From sequence record NC_052660.1: DNA of 64,000 nt. One strand, given 5' to 3'. Within the stretch, counting starts at the first letter, position 1; each line of letters starts with the position of its first letter. The notes beneath the pieces were generated by a model. It was given only the letters and a program-made list of their open reading frames with translations, was not told where the DNA came from and ran no database searches. The position numbers and the translations under genes are program-made. This DNA is from Escherichia phage tuntematon. This document shows, one piece after another, positions 42,602-48,113 of the stretch.

Positions 42602-44755
42602 CTATATATAAAATTTTTGTGTTGTTACTAAATCTTCTCCAGATTTAGTGGCTAATGTAATTCCACTTATGGTGGCAATCTCAACATTTACCTGTTTAAG
42701 AGTGATATCCTGTAAATAAACGTTCAAAGGCACGTTACCCATATAGAAAACTTGGGATTGAGAATTAACTACTGTGATAGAATCATGCATTATTTGAGGA
42801 TAGGCCCATATATATTGTGTAAGTCCGTCAAACTTATTGGCGTTCAACACTATGTTACCTATAATCATCTTCCAAAGATATGTGCGGTAGTTTGATTTAG
42901 GATCAAAGCCATACAAAGGTGCAAGAGTAGCATCTGGAACAAAACCTGAAAGGTAGTGAATATCAGAATATTCAAAACCTAATTTTTCATGTGGTATAGT
43001 AATTGCATCAAATGCTTTCATCATCTTACCTTCCAGAAGCCAGTCATAACACTCTGAACAGTAAAAATCAAAAGCTTCAGGAATGTAGTAATCAGACGGG
43101 AAGTTAACTTTCTCCATCAAACCGTTGCCGATAATTGATGGCAAGAACGGAAGCAATGTTACCTTGGCTCCTGGGTAAGTTGCTCTAGTATCTGTTGCAA
43201 ACTTTGTAACTCTTAATCCTAGTTTACGAGACAAAAATGCATAGTATTCGTCAAACGGCGTTCCTGTTTTATAATTATCTATTGTTCCTGCATCTTGTGC
43301 AAATAAACCTGTTTCTGTGTTGAATGCCAGTTTGGTAGTGTAATCATATATGCAAGGCATTTTACTTGCTGTATTATACCACCACCAAGGCTCACCAATT
43401 TGAATGACAACTGGAATATTATTAGCTTGCGAAATAGATGCTATTTTATTAATAACATTTTGCAAATATTCCATACCTTCGTCAATAGTTGGAGACAACA
43501 CATAACTAGGAGGTTTATACCCTGTTGCTGCAAGAGCATCGTTCCAATCATGCTGAACCCATTCTACAGGACAAACTGTGCTCATCAATTCAAAACTTAA
43601 AGAGTTCATTATTGTGTAGCCCTTCTCGTTTGCTATAGAATGGAAGCTGTTAAGCCAAGCTTCTGTAGCCGGATTCAGGAAAACAGATTTATTTAAAGCC
43701 CAAGATGTTCCATTCCATGAGAACTCATAATAGTGAGACATTCCGTTATAATGGTTAATCATCCCACGATAACCTAGTGCATATGTATTATAAATAACTC
43801 TCTCTGGAGTCAGGTTATACATATCATCATAAGATGTGCACATGCGAATATCATGTTCAGGCTGGACAAGGTTGCTGACTTTCATCATACTGTAACCAGA
43901 GGTAGGTTCAAGAAGAGTGAAAGTAAACCAAGCCTCTTGACTGTCAATAGGTACAACCTCTTCTATTTCTTCGTACCTTGCTGTAATCAAAGAGAAGAAA
44001 ATATTATCTACAGCACTCATATCCAAAGGAATATCATTATTAGGGCCAGAAAAGATATTACCAAAATCTAACTTGATTGTAGCTGTTTTACCATCTTCTG
44101 AAATATCTAAAGCGTAGAATCCTAAACTGACATAATGAACACTTTTATCCAGGAGAGTTACAGTCAAAGTCGGCACCAAAGGTTCTTCTTTAAAACCTGG
44201 CATGTTTTGACTAATTTCCATTTTAAACCAAAGTTTCTCTGAACTTAAATCTGTGTGGGGTAAATACCCAACACCTTTATGGTCATATTTGTCAACTGTG
44301 CTCCAGATAACCCCTGCCAAACCTGCTGTTGTTCTGTTTACAAATCTTGCAGTAAAAGAGTCTCCATGAGATACAATAGAACAACTTTCCGTTGCTTGAG
44401 AATCTATTGTCCAATACATAGGAGAGAACATTTTAACGTCTTTTGTAGTCCAAGTTATTGGAGTAGTATTTTCTTGGATAGTAGTTATAATACAATTGAT
44501 GGTTGTTTCAACCATCATATTATTTTGACTAATCCCTGAAACTTGGAGGGAGAAGTTAAGATCTATTGAGTTCTTTGGTCGTTCAAATACTTCAACCACA
44601 ATAGTAGCAGAATCAGCATCATCAGGGAACACAAGTGTTCCCGATTTTGCAATATAATCTCTACCAGCGACTGCTGTTCCGTCAACAGTCGTGTAGTTAA
44701 ATGAACTCGCATTTACTCTCTTGTCTCGCGTGACAGTAAATATAGCTTGTTTCAT
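42602..44755 (-). CDS. hypothetical large structural protein
   Basis: 717 aa ORF. Confidence 0.4.
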   Translation of the reverse strand: MKQAIFTVTRDKRVNASSFNYTTVDGTAVAGRDYIAKSGTLVFPDDADSATIVVEVFERPKNSIDLNFSLQVSGISQNNMMVETTINCIITTIQENTTPITWTTKDVKMFSPMYWTIDSQATESCSIVSHGDSFTARFVNRTTAGLAGVIWSTVDKYDHKGVGYLPHTDLSSEKLWFKMEISQNMPGFKEEPLVPTLTVTLLDKSVHYVSLGFYALDISEDGKTATIKLDFGNIFSGPNNDIPLDMSAVDNIFFSLITARYEEIEEVVPIDSQEAWFTFTLLEPTSGYSMMKVSNLVQPEHDIRMCTSYDDMYNLTPERVIYNTYALGYRGMINHYNGMSHYYEFSWNGTSWALNKSVFLNPATEAWLNSFHSIANEKGYTIMNSLSFELMSTVCPVEWVQHDWNDALAATGYKPPSYVLSPTIDEGMEYLQNVINKIASISQANNIPVVIQIGEPWWWYNTASKMPCIYDYTTKLAFNTETGLFAQDAGTIDNYKTGTPFDEYYAFLSRKLGLRVTKFATDTRATYPGAKVTLLPFLPSIIGNGLMEKVNFPSDYYIPEAFDFYCSECYDWLLEGKMMKAFDAITIPHEKLGFEYSDIHYLSGFVPDATLAPLYGFDPKSNYRTYLWKMIIGNIVLNANKFDGLTQYIWAYPQIMHDSITVVNSQSQVFYMGNVPLNVYLQDITLKQVNVEIATISGITLATKSGEDLVTTQKFYI

Positions 44756-44763
44756 TTTACCCC

Positions 44764-47640
44764 TTACTCGGTAACGTCCACACTAATGTTTGCCATTGTC
44801 AAAACAGTAAGTGCAGGAATATTGCTCGAATCCAAAACAGGTAATGCATTTTGGGGATTAAGTTTTTTGTATAAAGCATACAACCCAAAACCACGTAACA
44901 ACTCTCCAGCGTGGAAGCCAAAGAAGACTCCGTTATCACTGTCTGGTCTAGGAGCAGCACTCCAACAACCATTCATAACGTGATTAGGACCAAGAACAAT
45001 ATAGTTTTCCTGAATAAGTTCAAAACAGCGGTCTGCTACTATTTTAATGTTAGGAATTTCTGAATCATATCCAGCCATCCCCATTATAGCACATCCCGCC
45101 ATAAAGAGCGCAGACATGTGACTTGTAAAGTCATCTACAGGCGCAGCCACTTCTCCGTTGGGATAAAATATTGTTGGTGTTCTTCCTTCGTTGTTATCTT
45201 GGAACCACTTCAGGTAGTTGATCCAGTTTTTACAAACTGTTAAAAGTTTTTCAGGAACTTCGGCTCCTCGTCGCTTTAGTTCGTATACCGTATGACACGC
45301 ACAGAAGAATGCTCGTGCTTCATAACCATCCCAAGCTTTATCGTTCCAATGATACATTGTGAACTCATTTTTGTTTCCATATTTATGAGCATCCCAACGA
45401 TCCCAAACATAAGCTTGTGCCATTGGCCCAGGCATTACAGGGGCAAACTTATTATAAAACCACATTTGTGAATCATATAAAAAGTCTATACTGTTGTTCA
45501 TACGAACCCAGTCAATATCTCTCCCTTTAAAACAATATAAGGATGGGTATTGATAACCTGGGTAAGGAATACCACGCCAACCGTCATATAATGCTGTGTT
45601 AGGATCACTAATATTGGAAAATGGAATGATTCCTGGAGTATAATTCAAACTGTCAAGTTTGTAGTCCAGTATTGTACAATCTCCAAGTTTTGCTGTATAA
45701 GGATTTTCAGATGAAACTGTAACCCTGAAATACATTGTGTAATCATCGCCAGCGGCTGAAGAATACAAAGATGGGATATCGTTAACGCAATAAAAGTCGA
45801 TTGCCCCTGTCAAGCCATTTGCAGGTTCAGAATCCAATGCAATATTGATCTGATCAACAGCAGTCAGGTTTATTGACGAAGGTTTTGCCTCTGTGTCTTC
45901 GTGATTAGGTTGCCAAGTACTTAATTTGAAATCGGCAGGACTTAAAGCTTTAGTAACCCATGCAGAATTTGTTTTTTCTAACATGGCCCACCATCTCCAA
46001 CCTGCGGAATCCGTAATAGTGATGTTAAAATCATCTGCGTATGAACGATACGTAATAGATTTTAAATTGGCTGTTTTAGTTGGTGTTAACCAAAACCCAA
46101 CAGTAAAACCACCATCTGAATCCATATTAGCAGAAACTATCTGATCACTATTTGTCCCAGCAATACCAGTTGCATATTTATATTGTATCACAGTATTGCT
46201 TCCCCAGTCAACAATAATTCTGGGTTCAGCAATAATATATACACCACCTCCAGGAGGTTCGGTGCGCATAAAACTAGATAAAGGTATATCCATCTTAGTC
46301 ATATTAGCTGCACCAAGAGGTAAGCCACAACGATATGTCACTGTGTCTGTTTCACTCTTAGTCTTGCTTAATTCTAACTCTGGACGGAAAAGAACACCTT
46401 CCCCTGCATCATCTACACCTTGAAACTCAATACGCAGTTTTGAATTCTGATCCACTCTGAACCAAACTGCCTGTTGTTCTAGAGTTGTTTGTGCTGAAAC
46501 ATCTTGGCGAATTACTGTGTATCCTAATTCGTCACGAGAATATTTAGGTATTGCTGTAGATGGGTATGAGTAATCATACGAGATACCATCTGTAAAAGGA
46601 ATTATTGCTGTCGTAGATCTACGGAAGAATTTATCAAACATATCGATGTTTGAGTAGTCTTGACACAACAATAAAGAAGATTGCCAGCAAAGCCAGTATT
46701 TTCTCTCTCCTGTGATCTGATACATCAAGTAGTTTGCATCACACCACCACGTTTCAGCATCGGAAGCATTATCTTGATAGCCTAACTCTACCGGAACGTT
46801 CACAGGACGGTTATGCCACATCTCATTACGCTTAAGCAGATATCCACCGTGTTCTACAGGATTGCATGTAGCGTAGTTGAATTTATAGTCCCCGTTCACA
46901 GAAGCATTTTTAAGTTGCACTGTTCCATATTCTGCGAAGCTGTGACCTGTAGATAAAATGTTACCATCCCAATCAACTTTACGTCCTAGACGATCTATAA
47001 TCCATTCAACGTCCCACTGATCTCCATATTCTTTCCAGTTGGTTGAACCATCTGGGTTAGTTGCATACACTGTTGCGTTAACAGAGTTCCAACCAAGATT
47101 ACCATTGAAAGCAAACCAAGCTTTATCTAAGTATTCTCCCCAGTGTGGCGCACCTTTAGGAATAATAGTCCTTCCGTTAATCCAAGTCATCATGCTACCT
47201 TTGAACCCACCGTGCGTAGGATACCCATCATCTGTGAGAGGGTAATGTGCTAAACGTGGTTCTTTACCATTGATGATCCAGTTGGGACGATATTTAGCCG
47301 GAGGATCAGGAATAGGTTGGCCCCCGAAGAAGTGATCTATATAGGCTTGCCAATACTTCTCGGCAGATTCAAGATATTTTTTATCCCCTGTAGCCAAATA
47401 TGCATAAGCAAAACCAGTGATAAGCACAGATTGACCTTCGGTAGTAGCGTCACCGTTTGGTTGCCCTTCCTGCGCTGTCCAGTTAATAAAGTGTCTGTTG
47501 TTCGCCAATACGTTTTGTGGGTTGATAATGTAATGCTGAACCGTAGGATCTATGGTAAGCCCAGTATTTCTTTCCAAAAACTGAACCAACCCTTCAATCA
47601 ACTGAAACGTGTTGTCAATATTGTGCTTAACTCTTGACAT
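44764..47640 (-). CDS. large structural protein, possible polysaccharide-degrading (alpha/alpha toroid-like) domain
   Basis: 958 aa; Trp/Tyr-rich segments (e.g. ITGFAYAYLATGDKKYLESAEKYWQAY) reminiscent of alpha/alpha-toroid glycoside hydrolases/lyases; tentative. Confidence 0.35.
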   Translation of the reverse strand: MSRVKHNIDNTFQLIEGLVQFLERNTGLTIDPTVQHYIINPQNVLANNRHFINWTAQEGQPNGDATTEGQSVLITGFAYAYLATGDKKYLESAEKYWQAYIDHFFGGQPIPDPPAKYRPNWIINGKEPRLAHYPLTDDGYPTHGGFKGSMMTWINGRTIIPKGAPHWGEYLDKAWFAFNGNLGWNSVNATVYATNPDGSTNWKEYGDQWDVEWIIDRLGRKVDWDGNILSTGHSFAEYGTVQLKNASVNGDYKFNYATCNPVEHGGYLLKRNEMWHNRPVNVPVELGYQDNASDAETWWCDANYLMYQITGERKYWLCWQSSLLLCQDYSNIDMFDKFFRRSTTAIIPFTDGISYDYSYPSTAIPKYSRDELGYTVIRQDVSAQTTLEQQAVWFRVDQNSKLRIEFQGVDDAGEGVLFRPELELSKTKSETDTVTYRCGLPLGAANMTKMDIPLSSFMRTEPPGGGVYIIAEPRIIVDWGSNTVIQYKYATGIAGTNSDQIVSANMDSDGGFTVGFWLTPTKTANLKSITYRSYADDFNITITDSAGWRWWAMLEKTNSAWVTKALSPADFKLSTWQPNHEDTEAKPSSINLTAVDQINIALDSEPANGLTGAIDFYCVNDIPSLYSSAAGDDYTMYFRVTVSSENPYTAKLGDCTILDYKLDSLNYTPGIIPFSNISDPNTALYDGWRGIPYPGYQYPSLYCFKGRDIDWVRMNNSIDFLYDSQMWFYNKFAPVMPGPMAQAYVWDRWDAHKYGNKNEFTMYHWNDKAWDGYEARAFFCACHTVYELKRRGAEVPEKLLTVCKNWINYLKWFQDNNEGRTPTIFYPNGEVAAPVDDFTSHMSALFMAGCAIMGMAGYDSEIPNIKIVADRCFELIQENYIVLGPNHVMNGCWSAAPRPDSDNGVFFGFHAGELLRGFGLYALYKKLNPQNALPVLDSSNIPALTVLTMANISVDVTE

Positions 47641-48113
47641 TAAATAACTCCTGCTAAAACTAAGCTACCTGTCCAAGTTGCACCATTATCATAACTGATA
47701 AACTCAAAAGTGTCTGTTGCACCTTGACGATAACTCAAAACTGGGGGACGACCAAAACTCCATTTTACAGAAGAAGGCCATACGACTTTATTTGCACCAC
47801 TTCCTTGACGCAAAGCTAAAGTAAAGTTTAAAACTGCATTTGTTGCTACTGGAATATTAGTAAAACTAATTGTGCACGTTGCAGAAGATAAAGTTGCAGA
47901 AAAATATTCTGCTGAACTAATATCTAATGCCAAGGTGCTGGTTACTGTTCCCCGTGCATTCAGACGGTTTCTAGTTACCCCTGCACCACTCAACAGCACT
48001 TTCAAAGAAGTTTTCTTTGTTATTCCAGCCTGATCTGTTACAAAGAAATCTGTATCAGACACAGAGGTTGTTTGTGTAAGATCAGAAATTTTGATCGTAG
48101 TTAAATCTGCCAT
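47640..48113 (-). CDS. hypothetical structural protein
   Basis: 157 aa ORF; start overlaps the next gene's stop. Confidence 0.35.
   Translation of the reverse strand: MADLTTIKISDLTQTTSVSDTDFFVTDQAGITKKTSLKVLLSGAGVTRNRLNARGTVTSTLALDISSAEYFSATLSSATCTISFTNIPVATNAVLNFTLALRQGSGANKVVWPSSVKWSFGRPPVLSYRQGATDTFEFISYDNGATWTGSLVLAGVI

Follow-up and report, generated by a model that had tools for sequence, protein, structure and literature searches.

The 958-residue protein encoded at 44764..47640 on the minus strand of the window, a 64,000-nt stretch of Escherichia phage tuntematon (NC_052660.1), is probably a virion-borne glycan hydrolase whose nearest relatives by predicted structure are GH8 enzymes. 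This assignment follows from a GH8-like predicted fold together with the retention of key acidic residues. We lean, by a little, towards a fuller reading in which the protein is a GH8-like toroid glycanase at the periphery of the virion tail that docks through a dedicated adaptor and serves as a proximal hub for further proteins.

A conserved tail gene in the late operon

The gene is an ATG-initiated open reading frame, and translation of the plus strand over the same interval is full of stops. The initial annotation of a 958-aa protein here is thus confirmed, with the minus strand as its coding strand. The product contains the peptide ITGFAYAYLATGDKKYLESAEKYWQAY at residues 74-100 and is 100% identical to JR324_gp228 of Escherichia phage nieznany (Phapecoctavirus). 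It is a real gene and not a chance ORF, orthologous to phi92 gp141, rV5 gp42 and S144 gp17, which together with PVP-SE1 gp50 are its closest known relatives. The gene is part of a late operon on the minus strand, which reads, 5' to 3', tape measure, tube initiator, plug, hub, spike, sheath initiator, a 157-aa protein and the 958-aa ORF, followed by a 717-aa protein, a 452-aa protein, gpJ-like and gpI-like wedge proteins, a fibre and its chaperone, and a 1017-aa colanic-acid-type tailspike. This order agrees with the baseplate and fibre setting proposed earlier.

Homologs over the full length are present in 519 phage records. An exhaustive HMMER search of 1.84 billion proteins returned 385 cluster representatives, none of which visibly belongs to a cellular GH family, as judged from match patterns in an unannotated library. 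The protein matches the PHROG 2871 'tail protein' family (E = 0, 1560 bits) and aligns without gaps to phi92 gp141 at 83% identity, both being 958 aa long. The gene order of phi92 gp134-gp151 is identical to that of the operon. Full-length homology and conserved synteny place the protein in the phi92 gp141/PHROG 2871 family.

Two members of this family, rV5 gp42 and S144 gp17, have been found in virions by mass spectrometry, the latter with 25 peptides and 33% coverage; S144 gp16 was likewise detected. Together with the operon context, these data bear out the earlier description as a structural protein and, by analogy with the homologs, suggest that the nieznany protein is a virion protein of the tail periphery. 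Glycosidase status has already been proposed in the literature for the phi92 counterpart: a table in a review enters gp141 as 'Glycosidase', citing Schwarzer 2012. In addition, the Atoyac14 homolog is annotated 'glycosidase superfamily' and S144 ORF17 gave an HHpred 'hydrolase' result. No activity is reported for any homolog in the searchable literature.

Predicted fold and domain organization

Both the structure model and the structural search identify the conserved core as a six-hairpin (alpha/alpha)6 toroid whose closest fold is GH8, the cellulase family, within the GH8/GH48/GH126-like type. The alpha/alpha-toroid domain suggested earlier is therefore present in the predicted structure, and the outcome named in advance as counting against it, a model lacking such a fold, did not arise. 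Two parts of that suggestion need revision. The helical segments had been placed in the N-terminal half; the quoted peptide does lie there, but long helices are predicted at residues 293-330 and 711-926 as well as 7-104. Glycoside hydrolases or polysaccharide lyases had been offered as the model, and the former comparison holds, whereas the toroid-type lyases (PL5, PL8, PL15, PL17 and similar) are not the closest structural neighbours. The proposed distinction from the beta-helix spike stands: the model consists of the toroid and beta-sandwiches, with no right-handed beta-helix or beta-propeller catalytic domain, and the 1017-aa tailspike is a separate gene of the same operon.

The toroid is assembled from three segments separated by two inserts, all on the minus strand, and its inner and outer helices were assigned from secondary structure only, in keeping with a closed toroid of about 12 helices, 6 inner and 6 outer. 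Segment N (residues 1-118; 47287..47640) carries helices 7-24, 67-84 and 87-104. It is followed by insert A (residues 119-283; 46792..47286), a beta-rich domain in a loop between toroid helices that is as conserved as the toroid itself. Segment M (residues 284-345; 46606..46791) contributes helices 293-310 and 313-330. Insert B (residues 346-665; 45646..46605) comprises two beta-sandwich domains and varies more across the family than any other region; D544-x-x-G-W-R-W is conserved within it. A match to phrog_23426 covers residues 498-624 of this insert, and Foldseek matches to CBM11, CBM22 and CIA30 folds, reported for the whole model, are placed in insert B without a reported residue range. 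The linker and segment C (residues 666-927; 44860..45645) supply helices 711-732, 773-790, 797-815, 840-855, 865-878 and 908-926, with Y696, Q697, Q725, D750, W770, R776, H841 and E913 conserved. The insert loops would face the active site. The C-terminal tail (residues 928-958; 44767..44859), which has pLDDT below 50 and falls outside the family profile, is conserved with phi92 and may serve as a docking peptide for the protein that follows.

Conserved acidic residues and comparison with GH8

Two short motifs link the toroid to GH8. The first, T66-T-E68-G-Q70 (47431..47445, minus strand), lies at the start of helix 67-84 and resembles T-S-E55-G-Q of E. coli BcsZ. The second, A292-S-D294-A-E296-T-W298 (46747..46767, minus strand), resembles A-S-D116-G-D-V-W. 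At the level of sequence, the protein thus appears to carry both the GH8 general-acid Glu motif [ST]-E-G-Q and the Asp signature A-[ST]-D-[AG]-D that includes BcsZ D116; the remainder of the PROSITE-type GH8 signature has no match. PDB variants mark BcsZ E55 (TTSEGQSY; 3qxq E55Q) and D243 (SYDAIR), against which our protein has TTE68GQS and ASD294AE. The best local hhalign match between the two proteins is the D294/D116 motif, and greedy extension of that alignment pairs E68 with E55. None of 40,000 shuffles reproduced the two motifs in order.

Conservation, computed over 158 family members, is high at these sites. E68 is kept in 142/148 sequences (96%) and Q70 in 139/148 (94%), while D294 and W298 are kept in 152/154 (99%) and 148/154 (96%), respectively; R776 (97%) and Q725 (99%) are similarly constrained. 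This conservation does not extend to the GH8 base position. The GH8a base (BcsZ D243, in S-Y-D-A-I-R) aligns to position 774, which is Gln in 117/158 sequences and Glu in 18/158, including ours. With that position mostly Gln, the base is not firmly assigned, and two other carboxylates are candidates. D750 (codon 45391..45393, minus strand), in the loop before helix 773-790 and acidic in 94% of the family, is a candidate catalytic base. E913 (codon 44902..44904, minus strand), at the N-terminal end of the final toroid helix and acidic in 97%, may take this role instead.

Membership of GH8 by sequence was considered and rejected. Pfam gave no match at E <= 1, including PF01270, and neither NCBIfam nor a phmmer search of the PDB gave a match; a PDB profile search yielded only a marginal GH76 motif match (E = 0.04). 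Comparing a toroid-only alignment by hhalign with BcsZ alone and with an alignment of the BcsZ family gave no significant match (family: E = 0.054, probability ~1%), the BcsZ profile being shallow because its homologs are all at least 60% identical. Given this result, we do not assign the protein to GH8. It shares 8-14% identity with GH8 (BcsZ and C. thermocellum CelA), GH48 and GH126 (3ren), and differs from all three in that its toroid is broken by inserts of ~165 and ~320 aa. GH8-type enzymes are, moreover, periplasmic or secreted, whereas this protein would be borne on the virion.

The adaptor and the downstream partner

The 157-aa protein encoded immediately upstream (47640..48113, minus strand), which we call the adaptor, is the phi92 gp140 ortholog. 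Its stop codon overlaps the toroid gene's ATG (TAATG), and an AGGAG Shine-Dalgarno sequence (47648..47652, minus strand) lies within the adaptor gene's 3' end with a 7-nt spacer to that ATG. These signals indicate that the adaptor is translationally coupled to the toroid gene. The TAATG overlap recurs in the window, phi92 and a prophage, and in other contexts the two genes are adjacent or overlapping. The C-terminal ~100 aa of the adaptor form a conserved domain that is found alongside the toroid gene in genomes of myo-, podo- and siphoviruses and has no Pfam or NCBIfam match. Its own partners vary: in a podovirus it is combined with a T7-fibre N-terminus, in an rV5-like phage with Tail_spike_N and in a sipho-type prophage with a 560-aa fibre-like protein. 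N-terminal fusion of this domain to toroid proteins, in the Rosetta-stone sense, was not found, and only the odd chimera P0175 turned up.

We take the podovirus adaptor-plus-tailspike systems (K1-5, K1E and SP6 gp37-type adaptors) and the branched CBA120 tailspike complex to be analogues of the adaptor and toroid pair. The feature predicted to be shared with K1-5, K1E and SP6 is a small protein whose N-terminus is T7-gp17-like or of the Tail_spike_N type and to which an enzymatic receptor-binding module, encoded by a gene of its own, is attached. By comparison with CBA120, further spikes presumably branch from such adaptors. In the present case the adaptor would carry an alpha-helical toroid, in place of the trimeric beta-helix or beta-propeller of the adaptor-plus-tailspike systems.

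Downstream lies the 717-aa protein (42602..44755, minus strand), the phi92 gp142 ortholog, with Calx-beta, NCTSP_N and TIM-barrel_NCTSP domains. It is this protein that is homologous to N4 gp64 (BLASTP E = 6e-34), whereas BLASTP of the toroid protein against N4 gp64 gave no meaningful similarity. We therefore reject an identification of the toroid protein with the BASEL 'sugar-deacetylase fibre component, homologous to N4 Gp64', a link that had been suspected from the position of its gene in rV5-like genomes. The comparison with phage N4 gp64/gp65 (non-contractile sheath, TIM barrel) is still relevant, as natural fusions join a toroid to an NCTSP TIM barrel (P0097 and P0146). Other toroid fusions involve baseplate-wedge or tail domains (Tail_P2_I in P0087, Phage_min_tail in P0219) and Gly_rich_2 (P0093).

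Alternative explanations

The toroid could instead be a catalytically inert scaffold, possibly glycan-binding, that connects the adaptor to the downstream fibre proteins, with its conserved polar residues needed for folding, for contacts with partners or for binding sugar without hydrolysis. That the protein is very highly conserved across hosts whose surface glycans differ is as compatible with a structural role as with a conserved substrate, and (alpha/alpha)6 toroids are also found in non-hydrolases; indeed, the structural search matched AGE epimerases, terpene cyclases, complement TED and the SSV19 VP4 tail protein. Against this, four carboxylates together with Trp, Tyr, Arg and Gln are 94-99% conserved down to ~20% identity, and two of the four carboxylates fall within GH8 catalytic motifs. 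In relics that retain binding alone the general acid is usually lost, which also speaks against a scaffold. We consider an inert toroid a serious but unlikely alternative. The protein could also be an enzyme of the toroid superfamily other than a GH8-like hydrolase, such as a polysaccharide lyase, an epimerase/isomerase or a GH76/GH105/GH88-type enzyme with different catalytic residues. We regard such an enzyme as improbable.

The initial annotation had tentatively suggested a capsule or EPS depolymerase. Its enzymatic part is supported by the glycosidase-like toroid with GH8-like acid and Asp motifs, and virion association of the homologs and a multi-spike 'Swiss army knife' locus would also suit a serotype-specific depolymerase acting as a second host-range determinant analogous to the beta-helix spikes. 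The distribution of the gene, however, argues against such specificity. The gene belongs to the conserved, non-allelic part of the locus and is present at >=95% nucleotide identity in 63 records, and phages of hosts with unrelated capsules have homologs at 42-47% identity. The BASEL paper describes most of the locus as conserved, with three large genes alone varying. A capsule-specific role is accordingly very hard to credit.

Proposed role in the phi92-type fibre network

For the GH8-like glycanase that we favour, the arrangement of genes and domains suggests the following architecture. The conserved C-terminal domain of the adaptor would bind the toroid protein, and its exchangeable N-terminus would plug the pair into the baseplate periphery. 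The toroid pocket may bind a beta-linked surface glycan and cleave it by a GH8-like inverting mechanism, with E68 as putative general acid, D294 as the sugar-distorting or stabilising Asp and D750 or E913 as base. As proximal hub, the toroid protein would hand on through its lineage-specific C-terminal tail to the 717-aa N4-gp64-like TIM-barrel protein, from which the chain probably continues to the variable 452-aa spike. The three proteins may thus form one side fibre of phi92-type phages. The BASEL paper leaves unclear which genes build the three side fibres of phi92-, phAPEC8- and rV5-like phages. In a 2026 phi92 cryo-EM study (PMC13450770) neither fibre II nor the fibre I arm is assigned, and gp141 and gp142 are neither mentioned nor placed; the cryo-EM paper on the Felixounavirus Bas63 describes no toroid-protein counterpart in its fibre network. 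The toroid with its GH8-like acid/Asp pair, its dedicated adaptor and the gp142-like fusions provide concrete candidates for the phi92 fibre densities.

A broader and distinctly more speculative proposal is that the gp141 family constitutes an uncatalogued GH family, GH8/GH48/GH126-like with a relocated base and two inserts. Its members might be a universal 'enzymatic hub' able to dock onto the tails of myo-, podo- and siphoviruses and to cleave a conserved beta-linked envelope glycan (ECA, cellulose/pEtN-cellulose or an LPS core-proximal linkage), and with gp140 and gp142 might explain the phi92-type fibre density. The toroid protein is a candidate for a conserved glycan-processing step before irreversible adsorption in phages that include widely used broad-host-range coliphages (phi92-, phAPEC8- and rV5-like). 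If active, it would represent a new helical-fold class of virion glycanase, portable between tail types and useful for engineering receptor-binding modules. The DepoScope survey, which gives no family-level or mechanistic description, lists predicted toroid depolymerases of the same fold class, and the alpha/alpha-toroid is a rare phage depolymerase fold in it (11/984 fold hits).

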